Positions 43,350 to 62,397 of a stretch of 64,000 nt of DNA are shown one piece after another. Every line of letters starts with the position of its first letter. Within the stretch, counting starts at the first letter, position 1. Origin of the DNA: Oxynema aestuarii AP17 (GTDB lineage: Bacteria; Cyanobacteriota; Cyanobacteriia; Cyanobacteriales; Laspinemataceae); NCBI RefSeq assembly GCF_012295525.1, contig NZ_CP051167.1:5941299-6005298 (forward strand), given 5' to 3'. The notes under the pieces were generated by a model, which saw only the letters and a program-made list of their open reading frames with translations, did no database searches and was not told the DNA's origin. The translations under genes were made by a program, and so were the position numbers.

Positions 43350-44503
43350 TGAATTAGCATAAAATAGATACAAGAATCCTATGAAAAGCTGATTTCAGTG
43401 ATGGAAAACTAGCTCTCTAAACCAGTGGACATAACTAATCTTTTCACACATAAAAGCCTGTAAATATCGCAACTTATCTAATAATGATGAACCCCATTCT
43501 TGGTTAATTTTTACTAATTTTAAAATTAGATATCCGATTAAACAGCAATAAATCTGGATTTCCATTCCATTCACATTTTTCGTGATAAATTTATCCAACT
43601 TTAAGTGCATTTTCAAGAACTTCCACAGCAATTCAATTTGCCAGCGTAGTCGATAAAATTCACCAATTTCTTCGTTACTTATTCCTCCTTCTCCTGTCTC
43701 TGGCAAATTCGTCACTAAGCGAAATTCAGTTTTTTCTTCCCGGTCGCAAAACATTACTACTCTTCCTTGTACTTGTGCTGTTCCTGTCCCCATTAAATAT
43801 TCCCCATTCTCTAACATTTCTAATTTAATGTTTTTTCGGATTCTCAAGACGAAGTAGCGATTTTTTTGAGCTTGAAGTTGGGCAATTCTTTCTAAGCTGC
43901 AAAAACCTCTATCCATTACGGCGACTCCGTTTTCCGGCGTGGCTTCTATCGTTTCATTTCCATATTTGCTATCGTGTCCTTGACCCAAATGAATTGATAT
44001 TCCTCCTGGGTTTCCTGTCACTAAGTTAATGCCACTAAACAGTTTCAATTGGTGATATCCTTGATGCCATAAGAGTTTACTCGTCAAAGTGATAATGGTT
44101 GAATCTAAAGGAAATATCATCAACTCTTTATCTGAATTTTGGGATTTTTTGGCTACTTCTTTTTTCAATTCATCCCACAATCGATGAAAAACTTCTGGAC
44201 TACGAGTTTTACTGGCTTTTGAGAAGGTTGATATATCTACGGATTCTCCGCGAATATTTAGTCTTTTAAACAAACTTCTCATCGTTGTTTGACTCTGGTC
44301 TAAAATGAAATTTAGCCAAATTGAGACAAACTTGAAAGTGTCTAGTACTGGATAATCGTCTTGGGGCAGATGACTTAGATGTTTTTGGAGAATTTCAGGA
44401 AAGTTTGATACAATCATTGTTAAGTATTTATCGAAATATTGCCCCTATTTTACTTGATTAGGGACTTTTTTTGTCAAATTTCTCTTAACATTCAACACTT
44501 CTG
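43328..44503. mobile_element. IS4-family insertion sequence (1176 bp) with 13-bp perfect terminal inverted repeats and 9-bp target-site duplication.
   Basis: The left IR is CAGAAGTGTTGAA (43328-43340). The right IR is TTCAACACTTCTG (44491-44503). The TSD GGCTGATTT lies at 43319-43327 and 44504-44512. The interior is AT-rich. Confidence 0.8.
43395..44417 (-). CDS. IS4-family DDE transposase.
   Basis: The 340-aa product has the C-terminal Y-x2-R-x3-E-x6-K motif (YRLRWQIELLWKFLK) typical of IS4-type transposases. Confidence 0.85.
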   Translation of the reverse strand: MIVSNFPEILQKHLSHLPQDDYPVLDTFKFVSIWLNFILDQSQTTMRSLFKRLNIRGESVDISTFSKASKTRSPEVFHRLWDELKKEVAKKSQNSDKELMIFPLDSTIITLTSKLLWHQGYHQLKLFSGINLVTGNPGGISIHLGQGHDSKYGNETIEATPENGVAVMDRGFCSLERIAQLQAQKNRYFVLRIRKNIKLEMLENGEYLMGTGTAQVQGRVVMFCDREEKTEFRLVTNLPETGEGGISNEEIGEFYRLRWQIELLWKFLKMHLKLDKFITKNVNGMEIQIYCCLIGYLILKLVKINQEWGSSLLDKLRYLQAFMCEKISYVHWFRELVFHH

Positions 44504-45125: not shown

Positions 45126-45184
45126 ATGTTCAAATATCAGCGATTTTAAATAATTTATACAGCATTTTCCTCTGTCATTTAAGA

Positions 45185-45330
45185 CATTTAGAGCCCCCTA
45201 AATCTCCCTTAAAAATCCCCCTAAATCCCCCTTAAAAAGGGGGACTTTCCTCGTTCCCCCCGAAATCCCCCCTTCGCCCCCCTTTCAAAGGGGGGTTGGG
45301 GGGATTGGGGGATCGGCACTGTTGTACCTC
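45185..45330. repeat. C5-6/G5-6 nested-palindrome repeat cluster (MITE-like).
   Basis: There are successive CCCCC(C)-AT-GGGGG(G) hairpins, for example CCCCCTTAAAAAGGGGG and AATCCCCCC-ttcg-CCCCCCTTT-c-AAAGGGGGG-tt-GGGGGGATT. The same architecture recurs inside tnpB at 60468-60513. Confidence 0.7.
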
Positions 45331-45382
45331 ATCAGACGCCCGAGTGCTGTAAATCAATCAGGGAGCAAGATGCTCGCCCTAG

Positions 45383-59198: not shown

Positions 59199-59990
59199 CT
59201 ACAAGCCGCCTCCCTGACCCATTCCTTGGAACATCAGCCAGGAAAGGAAGAAATTCGCAATAAAAATCGCGAGTAAGGAGGTGACGACGGCGGTGGTGGT
59301 GGATTGTCCGACGCCTTTCGCTCCGCCTGTGGTGGTCAAGCCCCAGCTACAGCCGATCGTGGCAATTAAACCGCCAAAAAATAAGCCTTTAATTCCGGCG
59401 CTGAGGATATCCCAAATATCTAAAAAGTTGCGAATCGATTCGAGAAACATGGTTTGCGACAAGCTGTAGAGATTGGTGGCGATGAACAGCCCGCCGACTA
59501 GACCCGTGACTAGAGAAAACAAGGTCAAGATCGGCAACATGATGCAACAAGCGAGAAAACGCGGAATCACGAGGTAATCGATCGGATCGGTTTTGAGGAT
59601 GTAGAGGGCGTCAATTTGTTCGGTCACTTGCATGGTACCGAGCTCGGCGGCGAAGGCGGAACCGACGCGACCCGCGAGGATGACGGCGGTCAGGACGGGG
59701 GCGAGTTCTCTGGCGAGGGCGATCGCGAGGACCCCACCCACCGCACTCCCGGCGCCGAAGTTAATGAATTCTCGCGACACTTGGATGGTGAAGACCATCC
59801 CGACGAAGGCGGCGGTAATTAGGGCGATCAGCAGGGAGTCCGGACCGACGGCGGCGAGTTGTTCGAGGGTGTTGCGACGGTGGATTTTGCCGGAGAGTAG
59901 GTGATAGATGACTTGACCGCCGAGCATGATCGCGGCGAACGATCGCCGCATCCATTGGGTCAAGCTGGATTGAGATTTCTTTTTATTCAA
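59199..59990 (-). CDS. mlaE: MlaE-family ABC transporter permease (lipid asymmetry/phospholipid transport).
   Basis: A multi-TM permease of about 260 aa with the conserved MlaE core (...DALYILKTDPIDYLVIPRFLACCIMLPILT...). Confidence 0.8.
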   Translation of the reverse strand: MNKKKSQSSLTQWMRRSFAAIMLGGQVIYHLLSGKIHRRNTLEQLAAVGPDSLLIALITAAFVGMVFTIQVSREFINFGAGSAVGGVLAIALARELAPVLTAVILAGRVGSAFAAELGTMQVTEQIDALYILKTDPIDYLVIPRFLACCIMLPILTLFSLVTGLVGGLFIATNLYSLSQTMFLESIRNFLDIWDILSAGIKGLFFGGLIATIGCSWGLTTTGGAKGVGQSTTTAVVTSLLAIFIANFFLSWLMFQGMGQGGGL

Positions 59991-60077
59991 GGCGACGCCG
60001 AACGTACAATGTTGAATTGTAGCGAATTGAATTGACTCATCTGCAATAATTTTTTTGAGTGAACTACCGCTATTGAA

Positions 60078-61304
60078 TCAAAGATTACAATAGCGGCTTC
60101 CCTCTTCACTGGGGACTGCGCTAGATAGAACTGAAGTTCTACCACCTCGTCTTAGATCCCCTCCAAGGGCAGTAGAGCGAGTTCCTAACTCTAATATCCG
60201 TAAGCCTTCATTTTTGAGATTGATGGCCGCATTGATATCCCTGTCATGATGAGTTTGGCAATGTTCGCAAGTCCAGCTTCTCACATCGAGAGGTAAGGTT
60301 TTGACTTGATTGAGGCATACATGGCAGGTTTTAGAAGAAGGAAACAATCGATCGACTTCTAGATCAACTTTTCCTTCTGATTCAGCCTTGTACTTTAACA
60401 TCGTACAAAACATCCCCCAACCGACATCACTAATCGCTTTGGCGAGTTGGTGATGGCGAACCATGCCTATCCCCCCTTTAGTTCCCCCCTTATTAAGGGG
60501 GGTTAGGGGGGATTCGACCACAATCACTTGGTTTTCGTTCACTATCTTACGGGATAGCTTGTGGAGAAAATCTTCACGACAGCGACTTATTTTGGTGTGA
60601 ATCTTAGCAACTTTTACCCGCGATTTATTGCGGTTGTTGCTGCCTTTCCTTTTTCGAGCGTGTTTTTGCTGTTTTCTTTTTAGGTTTCGCGCGTGTTTAT
60701 CAAAATGCTTGGGATTATTATATTTCGACCCCTCACTGGTCATCGCAAAATCGGTCAGCCCTAAATCAATGCCAATTGCTTTTCCTTCAGTTGAGAGGAG
60801 GGGAGGTTCTTTTTTACCCTCTACCAAAACTGAAGCATAATATTTACCATCTGGATTTTTGGAGAGGGTTACAGTTTTGATTTTTCCCTCAAAACTTCGA
60901 TGCTGACGACAACGCACTAACCCAACTTTAGGCAGTTTGATGTAGTTTCCCTCAAACTTAACATTTTGAGGATAACTGATAGATTGCCTTCCCTGCTTGG
61001 ATTTGAATCGGGGTAATTTTGCCCGTTTCTCAAAGAAGTTTCGATACGCGGTCGATAAGTTCAACGCCACGACTTGCAAGCATTGGGAATAGACATCTTC
61101 TTTAAGCCAAGGGTATTCCTTTTTGAGGGCAGGTAATAATCCCTGAAGATAACCCCTCGATAGACCTTTCCCGGTCGATTGATAAGTCTCTTGGCACAAA
61201 TTTAACGCATAGTTCCAATACCAACGACAGCAACCAAAGCTCTTGGCTAAAGTCGCTTGTTGCTTGTGGGTTGGATAGATGCGGTATTTGTACGCCTTGA
61301 ACAT
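60078..61304 (-). CDS. tnpB: TnpB (IS605 OrfB, RuvC-like RNA-guided endonuclease family).
   Basis: It has the N-terminus MFKAYKYRIYPT, RuvC-I AIGIDLGLTDF, the zinc finger CHVCLN...CEHCQ and RuvC-III HDRDINAAINL. Confidence 0.85.
   Translation of the reverse strand: MFKAYKYRIYPTHKQQATLAKSFGCCRWYWNYALNLCQETYQSTGKGLSRGYLQGLLPALKKEYPWLKEDVYSQCLQVVALNLSTAYRNFFEKRAKLPRFKSKQGRQSISYPQNVKFEGNYIKLPKVGLVRCRQHRSFEGKIKTVTLSKNPDGKYYASVLVEGKKEPPLLSTEGKAIGIDLGLTDFAMTSEGSKYNNPKHFDKHARNLKRKQQKHARKRKGSNNRNKSRVKVAKIHTKISRCREDFLHKLSRKIVNENQVIVVESPLTPLNKGGTKGGIGMVRHHQLAKAISDVGWGMFCTMLKYKAESEGKVDLEVDRLFPSSKTCHVCLNQVKTLPLDVRSWTCEHCQTHHDRDINAAINLKNEGLRILELGTRSTALGGDLRRGGRTSVLSSAVPSEEGSRYCNL
60468..60513. repeat. Nested-palindrome C6/G6 repeat inserted in frame within tnpB.
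   Basis: TATCCCCCCTTTAGTTCCCCCCTTATTAAGGGGGGTTAGGGGGGATT encodes ...VVESPLTPLNKGGTKGGIGMV... where TnpB proteins normally have a short ...VED-LNVKGM... segment. It belongs to the same family as the 45270-45313 repeat. Confidence 0.55.
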
Positions 61305-61371
61305 TATCGCCGATATAGCCAGATGATAAGATTATAACTGATTTGCCGAAGAGTCGCTTTCATCCCCCGAT

Positions 61372-62397
61372 TCACCTTCGGTAGAATCGGGGAATTCCCG
61401 CTCCCATTGTTAAACAAGTTGCGATGCGATATAGCTGTTTAGTCCATCGATCTAAAAGATCTGTGCCGATAGTAGTAATGATAACTGAATCAATTGCATT
61501 CAACTCGACAAGTTTTTTTAAAATTTCTAATGCAGTTCGCGTTTTCCCGGTTCCTGTTGCCATTTCTAAAACACCGTGACAGTGGTCTAGAAATATTTCA
61601 ATTGCTTCGCTTTGGTGTCGCCAAGTATTCTGTTTTTTAGATGATTTTAAATTATAATTATCCCGAGCTTCAGATACCGAAAACTGATTGAATGTTACCT
61701 CATATCTTTCCTCAGTCGGTGGGCGATCGGGTGCCATTCTCAGCAGCGATCGCCGCGCGGCTTCCGGAAATTCAATAACTTCTACATTGTCAGTTCTATT
61801 ATTCCAGAGGCGATCGAAGTCTTCAACTTTTCGTAAAACTCTCGATCGCACTTCTGAAGACCAAGAGCAAAAAACATCGATACATTCAAAATTGGCAATT
61901 AAACCGGAAGAGCTTTCATTCGCAGAACCAGTAAAAGCAACACTGTTATTGTTTCGATCTGTAAAAATTCCCAGTTTTTCATGATAAATTCCATAACCAT
62001 TGACAGCTTTGGTAATCGCTAATTTGATTTCGAGAATATCTCGTGCTAACAACCAAGCCAAACAAGCCAGACGATCGCCTACAATCTTTTCAAATTCTCG
62101 ATCGAGTTCTCTCGCGATCGCCCGCGCAATAATTTCTTCGCGTTGTTGCAATCCCATCGCGATCGCGTGAGTATCTTCTGAAGATAACTTCGGAGACGTA
62201 ATTAATTGCATTTTACCGCCCGAACGAATTAAAGCCGTCAACCCTTTGGCGGCAATTGCCATCGAACTGCTTGAAAAAAAACCGACGGCGCGTCGATAAA
62301 GTATTGCTTTTGCCAAGCAAGGGATGTAAAAATCGTCAATCAAATTATCGCGATCGCTCCGATAATCTTCTTTAAGGTCTAACTCAGCTAAATTCAA
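61372..62397 (-). pseudogene. 3'-truncated gene for a PLD-family nuclease fused to a superfamily-2 (ResIII/DEAD-like) helicase.
   Basis: An N-terminal PLD HxK(x)4D motif (GIYHEKLGIFTDRNNNSVAFTGSANES) is followed by helicase motif I (MATGTGKTRTAL). The ORF stops shortly after, with no motif II-VI or helicase C-domain, exactly where the IS605 element begins. The low GC is island-like. Confidence 0.65.

Follow-up and report, generated by a model that had tools for sequence, protein, structure and literature searches.

A GC-clamped nested-hairpin repeat in place of a loop-coding segment beside the RuvC-II glutamate of an Oxynema tnpB gene

Analysis of a 64-kb window of the Oxynema aestuarii AP17 genome (the window being the whole stretch of DNA analysed, 64,000 nt) revealed a nested C6/G6 hairpin that lies in frame within a tnpB gene, directly after the codon for the RuvC-II glutamate, in place of a shorter segment found in near-identical copies of the gene. 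Diverged tnpB genes of other lineages have the same hairpin at this codon. In the favoured reading, to which a probability of roughly 60% is assigned, the hairpin would be a selfish, non-autonomous mini-element that is placed by a site-selective, replacing mechanism without duplication, is translated as a Pro/Gly-rich loop, and is borne by an insertion sequence (IS).

The tnpB gene and its insertion sequence

The features on which the analysis of tnpB rests are as follows.

60059 to 61414, minus strand: complete tnpB-only IS200/IS605-family element of 1356 nt, delimited by a five-copy alignment with unrelated flanks
60078 to 61304, minus strand: tnpB coding sequence of 408 aa, exactly matching QIZ73280.1 / WP_168571426.1 from Oxynema aestuarii AP17
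60469 to 60513, minus strand: nested hairpin element of 45 nt, defined by sequence, pattern statistics, fold, and alignment of filled with empty copies
60513 to 60515, minus strand: RuvC-II Glu264 codon GAA (ISDra2 E278), at the left junction of the hairpin element

The IS begins with TTTAAC AATGGGAGCGGGAATTCCCC at its left end and finishes with ...AATAGCGGTAGTTCAC at its right end; alignment revealed that these ends are sharp and conserved at five loci with unrelated flanks, and tnpA is absent from the element. The encoded protein scores above the curated cut-offs of three Pfam families (HTH_OrfB_IS605, 73.3 bits; OrfB_IS605, 89.3 bits; Cas12f1-like_TNB, 73.7 bits), and the insert lies in the stretch of residues 265-295 that separates the two C-terminal domains. 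In an alignment with ISDra2 TnpB (E 2e-63), D180, E264, and D354 correspond to the catalytic residues D191, E278, and D361 of ISDra2 (PMC13639567). None of the Oxynema copies compared departs from this triad or from the four cysteines of the CxxC...CxxC zinc finger (C327/C330/C346/C349). The dN/dS ratio among the tnpB copies compared is approximately 0.3, which is not a measure of selection after the arrival of the hairpin. AP17 possesses at least five distinct TnpB proteins with the hairpin (hereafter "filled") in one 90% cluster, all five of those listed being filled; one of them, P0129, has a stem mutation and reads TKRGIG.

The first-pass annotation had suggested that the gene might be a domesticated nuclease. 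This suggestion was abandoned because neither the catalytic triad nor the zinc finger is damaged and because the gene belongs to a tnpB-only IS that has defined ends and exists in multiple copies, at several differing loci in Oxynema sp. CENA135. Regarding the features of TldR and other nuclease-dead domesticated TnpBs, the intact triad, the multiple IS copies, and the flanks that differ from locus to locus all separate the present gene from them.

Sequence and fold of the hairpin

The plus strand of 60469-60513 reads AT-C6-TTTAGTT-C6-TTATTAA-G6-TTA-G6-AT, and the coding (minus) strand reads AT-C6-TAA-C6-TTAATAA-G6-AACTAAA-G6-AT. On the coding strand the element starts with the third base of the Glu264 codon, and it encodes SPLTPLNKGGTKGGI, codons 265-279 of tnpB. 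The 408-aa ORF thus reads ...VVE-SPLTPLNKGGTKGGI-GMV..., in agreement with the in-frame location proposed earlier. The hairpin had been assigned to 60468-60513; the hairpin itself stands, and the span is one base too long at its 5′ end. The flank on the plus strand had been described as AAT; the 5′ flank on that strand is TAT, and the AAT/GAAT end belongs to the coding strand.

A nested C6-N-C6-N-G6 pattern occurs twice in the window, at 60471-60511 and at 45267-45303, and never in 100 dinucleotide-preserving shuffles of it. The second occurrence belongs to the following intergenic features.

45264 to 45313, plus strand: second nested C6/G6 hairpin of another subfamily (spacers TTCG/TT, loop TTTCAAA), intergenic
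45159 to 45352, plus strand: MITE-like repeat unit of 194 nt bearing this hairpin, with ends ACAGCA...TGCTGT

Both hairpins fold in the nested form (tnpB hairpin, -31.5 to -33.8 kcal/mol, z -2.3 to -2.8; intergenic hairpin, -43 to -46 kcal/mol, z about -3), bearing out the architecture that the earlier reading had described as common to them. Copies of the 194-nt unit with 77-80% identity are present in CENA135. Between copies belonging to one subfamily, the loop triplet is found inverted (AAT/ATT, TGT/ACA); judged from the sequences, such inversions are evidence that the DNA would behave as a hairpin and extrude in vivo.

Two familiar roles were considered and rejected. An intrinsic terminator does not fit, since neither strand has a T-run (U-tract) after the hairpin and there is no terminator-like call at 60469-60513. 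A known RNA family does not fit either, since the Rfam search gave no match at or above the gathering threshold for the tnpB hairpin and none above threshold for the intergenic hairpin. The latter weakly resembles the DUF1874 motif (28.6 bits, threshold 42), for which a function as an attC-like site of single-stranded DNA has been considered.

Filled and empty copies

Close homologues of the protein are 398 aa long and read VVEN-LNVK-GMV (89-90% identity by BLASTP, 91-95% in alignments), so a difference of about 10 residues exists, as predicted. CENA135 contains at least seven tnpB loci without the hairpin ("empty"). Their copies read GTCGA[GAATCTCAATGTTAA]AGGC, and the window copy and the filled CENA135 copy L001 read GTCGA[45 nt]AGGC. 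The 45 nt stand where near-identical genes have 15 nt (NLNVK), with no target-site duplication; the net gain is 10 aa and sets in at the final base of the codon for the RuvC-II Glu. Of the earlier term "inserted repeat", the repeat copy is upheld and plain insertion is not. In a second pair, from Xenococcaceae, the empty gene L143 reads GTTGAA[GATATTAACTTTAATTCT]TGG and the filled gene L142 reads GTTGAA[45 nt]TGG; these genes are 86.8% identical, and the hairpin replaces 18 nt, again without duplication. The replacement is observed in these two filled/empty pairs. Because both show loss of the target instead, a simple insertion with target duplication was rejected. The exchange of an earlier hairpin for the present one was also rejected, as shuffled sequence folds at least as well as the empty sites do (z about 0 to 0.5).

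The target resembles the AT-rich skeleton of the hairpin, and the replaced segment contains a TTAAC/TAM-like motif; both were judged indistinguishable from chance in AT-rich sequence.

A native, lineage-specific TnpB loop or an assembly artefact, involving no repeat copy, would be compatible with the open reading frame alone. The homologues that are 10 aa shorter and the recurrence of the hairpin across lineages led to rejection of the native loop; no close homologue has a loop of the same length with unrelated sequence, and the same 45 nt recur in other genera, whose assemblies are independent, and within MITE-like repeats of Crocosphaera watsonii. The probability left to this explanation is negligible.

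Within Oxynema, the filled copy L001 differs from empty copies of its own genome by only 3-4 nt (dS about 0.004-0.008) and from the filled window copy by 30 nt (dS 0.057), and L001 and the window copy have a common variant 17 nt downstream of the insert. As far as these nucleotide differences indicate, the pattern of L001 is not one of simple vertical descent.

Recurrence at the same codon

The hairpins in tnpB genes of Oxynema, Baaleninema (L027), and Xenococcaceae (L127, L132, L142) are identical at 44-45 of 45 nt and occupy the same codon, whereas their 150-nt flanks are only 41-72% identical. This recurrence in diverged genes is evidence, at the sequence level, pointing toward a hotspot. 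The placement is non-random: either the process that places the hairpin at this codon is sequence-selective, or selection for it there is very strong. Hairpins of the family are found in the segment from Glu to DAGW in further lineages as well, directly after Glu in the three lineages above and before DAGW in L079 and L135, and L079 has another one before the Glu strand. The same family also damages tnpB: the reading frame is broken by the second copy in L027, and L137 has lost the Glu.

A single ancient insertion, inherited vertically or horizontally, could give the same picture if selection or concerted evolution had held the hairpin constant while the gene diverged. The arms of a palindrome can correct each other, IS elements travel between genomes, and a short conversion tract within Oxynema would explain L001 with its shared downstream variant. 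Such correction cannot reach the unpaired spacers and AT ends, which are nevertheless 100% conserved between lineages, and the between-lineage flank identity of 41-58% is too low for homologous exchange. Moreover, the nearest relatives, namely 119 of 120 genes in the Xenococcaceae lineage and the CENA135 loci, are empty and retain an ordinary loop, the loss of a hairpin cannot restore NLNVK or DINFNS, and on a small scale the filled genes are already seen interspersed with empty sisters. A single insertion is therefore regarded as highly improbable.

The hairpin might instead act in cis as a nucleic acid, either as an RNA structure steering tnpB translation, mRNA decay, or omega-RNA processing, or as a DNA recombination or replication signal (cruciform or single-strand hairpin). 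Its stability of -31 to -34 kcal/mol, its perfect conservation against diverged flanks, the loop inversions that point to extrusion, and the sub-threshold resemblance of the intergenic copy to the DUF1874 motif agree with such a role. The missing Rfam family match of the tnpB copy and the lack of a U-tract and terminator-like call argue against it, as does the location approximately 390 nt upstream of the stop codon, which would place the hairpin outside the usual omega-RNA scaffold as known from ISDra2. In addition, empty IS copies have moved to several loci without the hairpin, and most members of the family lie in unrelated housekeeping genes, making a cis-acting function very unlikely.

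Position at the RuvC lid

The site had been placed near the RuvC-II Glu, and the hairpin indeed follows E264 directly. In the alignment with ISDra2, the insert falls at H279-N284, around P282; the insert site is the hinge of the RuvC "lid". An AlphaFold2 model (pLDDT 81, pTM 0.72) was obtained with a diverse alignment, an earlier model from 38 close homologues (pLDDT 55) being unusable. Foldseek found 8H1J, 8IAZ, and 8EXA as its best matches (target-normalised TM 0.78-0.86), i.e., the TnpB fold. In the model, a strand ends at E264, residues 265-294 are coil, and residues 268-293 have pLDDT below 50, so the insert is predicted to be coil right after E264 at the lid hinge, and the 15-residue Pro/Gly-rich loop is probably disordered. 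The segment corresponding to Q259-W296 is 28 or 30 aa long in 130 of 150 representative TnpBs, none of which has an insert here. Because the spacing from Glu to Met is almost length-invariant, tolerance of the insert by TnpB cannot be assumed, and, judging from the alignment, the filled protein may be impaired.

These observations bear on the explanation that the insert is kept for its effect on the protein, with 10 flexible lid-hinge residues attenuating, switching off, or hyper-activating the RNA-guided nuclease. If filled IS copies were better tolerated or retained, repeated fixation in the lid region would be explained. The position around P282, the strong perturbation implied by a 10-aa gain in a length-invariant loop, the clustering of hairpins between Glu and DAGW in several TnpB lineages, and the filled state of all five listed AP17 cluster proteins are in its favor. 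Conversely, identical nucleotide junctions in three lineages speak for targeting by the mechanism and not for selection acting on random insertions, family hairpins also disrupt tnpB (the frame of the second L027 copy and the Glu of L137), and the stem is already mutated in P0129. Retention for a changed TnpB is accordingly considered unlikely.

Distribution of the hairpin family

Pattern searches found matches in at least 120 genomic stretches from Cyanobacteria, Nitrospirae, Planctomycetes, and other phyla, the cyanobacterial hosts belonging to Oscillatoriales, Pleurocapsales, and Chroococcales. Members are 37-47 nt long with four C6-7/G6-7 runs and end in AT-C6...G6-AT in cyanobacteria and A-C6...G6-T in Nitrospirae; GAT...ATC flanks are seen in many of the cyanobacterial members (9 of 26 AT-ended copies). 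Since the search pattern itself imposes the architecture, the similarity across phyla may be partly convergent. In 141 kb of Oxynema sequence, the subfamily of the tnpB hairpin is found only inside tnpB, and neither a donor copy nor a mobilising enzyme came to light, which counts against the selfish mini-element reading. Only three IMG/VR contigs match, and a phage vector is thus deemed unlikely. A protein search with a concatenated SPLTPLNKGGTKGGI query gave no matches, and no description of the C6/G6 nested hairpin family was found in the searchable literature.

It had been asked whether other copies lie in frame within ORFs, and the pattern scan gave 72 of 127 (57%) in frame inside long ORFs, in all three codon phases and both orientations. 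Random windows from the same loci reach 68% by the same criterion, which means that location in an ORF is nearly as frequent for the hairpins as for random positions. The ORFs concerned include those for ValRS, UvrA, kinases, and TnpB, and alignments with solved ValRS, protein kinase, and UvrA revealed that the hairpin coincides with 9-11 additional aa.

Comparison with known repeats

To our knowledge, in-frame selfish palindromes are textbook material for Rickettsia only. The Rickettsia palindromic elements (RPE), reportedly repeats inside protein-coding genes (Ogata et al. 2000, Science 290:347), resemble the C6/G6 hairpin as selfish palindromes in frame in functional genes, including housekeeping genes, that add a peptide and leave catalytic residues in place. 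By their description, RPEs are set apart as elements of about 100-150 bp in Rickettsia and relatives, whereas the C6/G6 hairpin has 37-47 nt, is found in several phyla, replaces 15-18 nt, and recurs at one codon of unrelated genes. RPEs are a cited example of repeats within coding sequences (PMC3184786).

The tiny hairpin-type repeats SDR4-6 of Nostocaceae (Elhai et al. 2008, Genome Res 18:1484, as presented in passages of PMC5861425 and PMC4390886) are often nested in larger MITE-like repeats and insert precisely without duplication, SDR5 entering between nt 3 and 4 of HIP1 (G^ATC). In those passages, SDRs are 21-27 nt long and are reported only in Nostocaceae. The very small size, the cyanobacterial hosts, and the GAT...ATC flanks, comparable to the SDR5 site, are points of likeness; going by that description, the C6/G6 hairpin is set apart by its length of about 45 nt, its hosts outside Nostocaceae and outside cyanobacteria, and its location mostly in ORFs.

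REPs/REPINs (RAYT, HUH Y1) and the ends recognized by IS200/IS605 TnpA are likewise short, GC-rich, imperfect palindromes without target duplication, linked with single-strand hairpin biology and with IS200/IS605-rich genomes. One end of a REP bears a GTAG or CGTC tag (PMC3733652), whereas the C6/G6 hairpin ends in AT-C6 or A-C6 without such a tag. REPs/REPINs are extragenic, in contrast to the 72 of 127 hairpins (57%) in frame in long ORFs, and HUH insertion is seamless, whereas target bases are lost here. Bacterial MITEs (Nezha, MaeMITE, Correia, and others; PMC3184786) are non-autonomous and multi-copy, form stable secondary structures, and in some cases are joined to ORFs, and the intergenic hairpin lies inside a MITE-like unit of 194 nt. 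However, MITEs have 100-400 bp, terminal inverted repeats matching an IS, and direct target repeats, in contrast to 45 nt and the loss of 15 and 18 nt without duplication in the two filled/empty pairs.

Fungal mitochondria are said to contain GC clusters, double-hairpin elements, and byp elements (Paquin et al. 2000; Lang et al. 2014), which are similar as short, mobile, GC-rich (double) hairpins invading protein-coding genes in AT-richer genomes. These elements are organellar, and byp elements are skipped by the ribosome; unlike them, the C6/G6 hairpin is stop-free and in frame and is presumably translated.

Proposed mechanism and implications

According to the selfish mini-element reading, a GC-clamped nested-hairpin repeat would be written into tnpB of a tnpB-only IS200/IS605-family element, in an event that would swap out the 15 nt of the five-residue loop after Glu while keeping the frame and leaving no target-site duplication. 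The hairpin would then be translated as a 15-residue Pro/Gly-rich loop at the lid hinge, with the catalytic residues unaltered, and would have to be tolerated by TnpB. Mobility would be provided in trans by a putative enzyme or a templated repair process, and the filled gene would move with the IS, spreading among IS copies probably by short-patch gene conversion. We know of no transposase (these form target-site duplications) and no HUH enzyme (these act seamlessly) with a replacement of 15-18 nt as its outcome, a point against the reading. As no described transposition chemistry explains both the same-codon copies and the 15-18 lost bases, a writing mechanism not yet known is indicated.

A broader view, which is offered tentatively and with more doubt than confidence, is that the hairpins are undescribed, cross-phylum mobile elements of 37-47 nt, site-selective, target-replacing, and readable in frame, with the RuvC lid as a hot spot. 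If true, the hairpin would be a parasite of a parasite, naturally re-engineering the gate of an RNA-guided nuclease. The habit of in-frame palindromes, here in a much smaller element and in several phyla, would bear on the origin of protein loops. Single substitutions in the lid-hinge region by the catalytic Glu raise the editing activity of TnpB; therefore, the natural TnpBs with a 10-residue flexible hinge would provide ready test cases for lid gating.

Nested hairpins in the window

The C6/G6 repeat under study lies in frame inside a tnpB gene, and a second copy is intergenic.

60469-60513: nested hairpin in tnpB; plus strand, AT-CCCCCC-TTTAGTT-CCCCCC-TTATTAA-GGGGGG-TTA-GGGGGG-AT
60078-61304, minus strand: tnpB ORF, 408 aa, enclosing the hairpin in frame
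60059-61414: tnpB-only element, 1356 nt, with limits taken from the alignment of five copies with unrelated flanks
45159-45352: MITE-like unit, 194 nt, ends ACAGCA...TGCTGT, housing the intergenic hairpin

A scan of the 64-kb window for the C6..C6..G6 nested pattern returned only 60471-60511 and 45267-45303, and 0/100 dinucleotide-preserving shuffles contained it. Since both copies carry the pattern and both fold as nested hairpins (-31.5 to -33.8 kcal/mol in tnpB, -43 to -46 kcal/mol in the intergenic copy), the common architecture proposed in the first-pass annotation is borne out. A cis-acting role of the hairpin as RNA or DNA is rated as improbable beside a selfish mini-hairpin. The MITE-like unit contains three nested C/G hairpins, has diverged copies in Oxynema sp. 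CENA135 (77-80% identity; L001 1100-1285, L004 7760-7946) and matches the Rfam DUF1874 motif at a sub-threshold 28.6 bits (cut-off 42); for this motif, a possible role as an attC-like site in single-stranded DNA has been discussed. About 740 nt from the unit is a gene for a DDE_Tnp_1 (IS4-type) transposase (43395-44417, minus strand). HIP1 (GCGATCGC) occurs 169 times in the 64-kb window, indicating a HIP1-rich cyanobacterial chromosome, and GATC occurs 681 times.

The tnpB gene and its insertion sequence

The ORF product matches the Oxynema aestuarii AP17 protein QIZ73280.1 exactly and has all three TnpB Pfam domains. Alignment with ISDra2 TnpB over 385 residues (E 2e-63) places D180, E264 and D354 as equivalents of its catalytic D191, E278 and D361 (PMC13639567), and the catalytic and zinc-finger residues are invariant across filled copies, i.e., those with the hairpin. 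Comparing the window copy with those of CENA135 gives a dN/dS of ~0.3, a figure that includes pre-insertion history. The element starts with TTTAAC-AATGGGAGCGGG and finishes with ...GGTAGTTCAC; because no tnpA was found within it, it must presumably be mobilised in trans, as judged from IS200/IS605 biology. In the window, it truncates a PLD-plus-ResIII helicase gene: the interrupted ORF (61372-62397, minus strand), encoding a PLD-like nuclease domain and the beginning of a ResIII helicase domain, runs into the left end of the IS at 61414 and terminates there. Beyond the IS the remaining helicase part is absent, and the gene that follows encodes an MlaE permease (59199-59990).

Replacement of the loop following the catalytic glutamate

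Filled and empty forms occur together in a 90%-identity protein cluster. The filled proteins (408/405 aa; five from AP17, one from CENA135 and one JGI protein) read VVE-SPLTPLNKGGTKGGI-GMV, whereas the empty 398-aa proteins from several CENA135 loci read VVEN-LNVK-GMV; the segment is also absent from remoter 398-aa homologues in Geitlerinema and Baaleninema. The expected extra segment of about 10 residues is thus confirmed by alignment. The empty CENA135 copies (L002-L004) have GTGGTCGA[GAATCTCAATGTTAA]AGGCATGG, and the window and the filled CENA135 copy (L001) have GTGGTCGA[ATCCCCCCTAACCCCCCTTAATAAGGGGGGAACTAAAGGGGGGAT]AGGCATGG. From this comparison, 45 nt replace 15 nt (net +30 nt/+10 aa), and the target site is not duplicated. 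Therefore, the in-frame repeat copy described in the first-pass annotation stands, and a plain insertion does not. The empty sites gave no hairpin of their own in the fold test. Both a native loop and an artefact can be discarded, since close 398-aa homologues lack the segment and the same 45 nt occur in other tnpB lineages. The AP17 paralogue P0129 reads TKRGIG in place of the usual TKGGIG at the equivalent of residues 276-277; this substitution alters the outer G6 run, so stem pairing is not kept strictly constant after insertion.

The first base of the insert is the third of the E264 codon, and the insert spans the positions of ISDra2 H279-N284. In an AF2 model from a diverse alignment (pLDDT 81, pTM 0.72), which superposes on TnpB structures, strand 260-264 ends in E264 and residues 265-294 are coil, with pLDDT <50 at residues 268-293. 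Of 150 representative TnpBs with 39-69% identity, 103 have a Q259-W296 segment of 28 aa and 27 have one of 30 aa, and none carries an insert between the Glu and G-M; the post-Glu loop is therefore not naturally variable. Substitutions in this region, the hinge of the RuvC lid, raise TnpB activity (PMC11844463; PMC13639567). An adaptive role for the hairpin as a modifier of the RuvC lid is possible but unlikely, and is given less weight than a selfish origin. The intact ORFs and predicted catalytic residues, together with multiplication of the filled form in AP17, would point to retained DNA cutting, while the lengthening of an otherwise length-invariant, functionally sensitive hinge would point against it.

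The same codon in other tnpB lineages

In Baaleninema sp. E05-001, a fragment of tnpB (L027) encodes ...AVE-SPLTPLIKGGTKGGI-GMV... with junctions GA|ATCCCCCC and GGGGGGAT|AGG. In a third lineage, Xenococcaceae-type tnpB (L127, L132, L142), whose relatives have an adjacent Y1 tnpA, the product reads ...IFVE-SPLTPLNKGGTKGGI-W(S/A)(K/R)G.... Here, the empty L143 (GTTGAA[GATATTAACTTTAATTCT]TGG), 86.8% identical to L142, shows that 18 nt were exchanged for the same 45 nt as in Oxynema.

A single ancient origin is an improbable alternative to a selfish mini-hairpin, and one ancient insertion followed by vertical descent is excluded. Descent is opposed by inserts identical at 44-45/45 positions between lineages amid 150-nt flanks of only 41-58% identity (59-72% inside the Xenococcaceae group), and by the empty state of 119/120 nearest proteins of the Xenococcaceae-type lineage. 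It is further opposed by L001, which differs by 3-4 nt from empty copies of its own genome and by 30 nt from the filled AP17 copy, so that the filled form in Oxynema did not arise by simple descent. L001 and the AP17 copy share a variant lying 17 nt downstream from the insert; short-patch gene conversion among IS copies would fit this pattern. Near-identical inserts, diverged flanks and empty relatives therefore require recurrent site-selective acquisition, or exchange without flanking homology.

Other positions in tnpB are also occupied. In L027, one tnpB contains the identical hairpin twice at a distance of 176 nt (65-105 and 241-281 of the coding strand), the first in frame at the Glu codon and the second replacing part of the zinc-finger region and breaking the frame. 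In the same part of TnpB as the Glu-codon insert, family hairpins lie upstream of the DAGW motif in L079, which has another upstream of the Glu strand, and in L135 (reversed orientation). Elsewhere, L070 and L092 have one at CKK|GYPRFK. By a rough count, an estimate and not a formal test, 7 of ~10 independent events fall within a 45-residue TnpB segment.

A family of C6/G6 hairpins

Scanning 185,579 species genomes with C6-N1-8-C6-TT-NNN-AA-G6-N1-8-G6 gave at least 120 stretches; the matches listed come from many cyanobacterial orders, Nitrospirae/Thermodesulfovibrionia, Planctomycetes, Nitrospinota, Calditrichaeota, one CPR bacterium and two archaeal MAGs. Among the matches listed, 72/127 copies (57%) are in a frame open over 40 or more codons to each side (cyanobacteria 38/70, Nitrospirae 20/31, Planctomycetes 7/11), in both orientations and all three codon phases (39/20/13). 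Since random 41-nt windows of the same loci are open in this sense 68% of the time, the hairpins show little depletion from genes. Their peptides are rich in Pro and Gly (e.g., PPxPPLxKGGxxGG), and host genes among the matches listed include ValRS (three MAGs), UvrA, Ser/Thr kinases, MetRS-like, PrmC-like and WD40 genes. The genes listed next have essential housekeeping roles in Nitrospirae/Thermodesulfovibrionia, in a CPR bacterium and in a cyanobacterium.

L019, L067, L112: ValRS, hairpin in frame
L011: UvrA, hairpin in frame
L016: Ser/Thr kinase, hairpin in frame

Alignment to solved structures revealed extra residues at the hairpin: ValRS has 11 relative to 1GAX, a kinase has 10 that follow the HRD loop and precede DFG, and UvrA has 9 that follow the signature motif and precede Walker B. 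The same ValRS loop is struck in two Thermodesulfovibrionia and one CPR bacterium, in differing phases. In large multidomain cyanobacterial kinases of different genera (L037, L038, L056, L078, L100, L114), one homologous position carries hairpins read in differing phases (PLCPPLSRGDERGV, PPTPPYQGGATGG, SPLAKGGSKGG and others), which suggests that this site was struck repeatedly and independently; a second site is occupied in L013, L026 and L118.

Cyanobacterial copies mostly end in AT-C6...G6-AT, often GAT...ATC, and Nitrospirae copies in A-C6...G6-T. The GAT...ATC flanks of many cyanobacterial copies look as if inserted at G^ATC. The tnpB subfamily (spacers TAA/AACTAAA) is also found within a MITE-like, multi-copy repeat of Crocosphaera watsonii WH 8501 and related metagenome contigs, CAGTTATCAGTTGTGAGAATTAA...[hairpin]ATCTC..AATCTCATGAATCATT (L125-L141, L089, L108, L123). 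Within this subfamily, some copies have the loop triplet in the opposite orientation (AAT/ATT, TGT/ACA), a probable signature of hairpin-mediated minute inversions. Three of 2.9 million IMG/VR viral contigs (L146-L148) match the pattern, one copy being in frame in a 287-codon ORF.

Possible origin and relation to known repeats

The best-supported reading, with a probability of about 0.6, is a mini-hairpin that is selfish and non-autonomous and enters DNA through a site-selective writing process. This process would remove 15-18 target bases and leave no duplication; the hairpin would then be translated through as a flexible loop and, in tnpB, be carried as a passenger of the IS. Candidate mechanisms are HUH-type single-strand recombinases, GATC/HIP1-directed nicking and microhomology-mediated template switching, none of which covers every feature.

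Rickettsia palindromic elements (RPE), reportedly selfish palindromes in frame within genes, are nearest in behaviour, and the C6/G6 hairpin differs from them in size and host. Nostocaceae small dispersed repeats (SDR) are likewise tiny hairpin repeats nested in MITEs; as described in PMC5861425 and PMC4390886, SDR5 inserts precisely at G^ATC of HIP1, with HIP1-directed nicking proposed, and by these descriptions the C6/G6 hairpin differs in size and reported host range. Unlike REP/REPIN, it has no end tag and is not confined to extragenic DNA, and it differs from MITEs in size and absence of duplication. No description of C6/G6 nested hairpins or their peptides was found in full-text searches of a literature with few subscription journals. 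Behaviour as an in-frame selfish palindrome is already known in kind from the RPEs. There is a real chance that the class of element and its mechanism are new.
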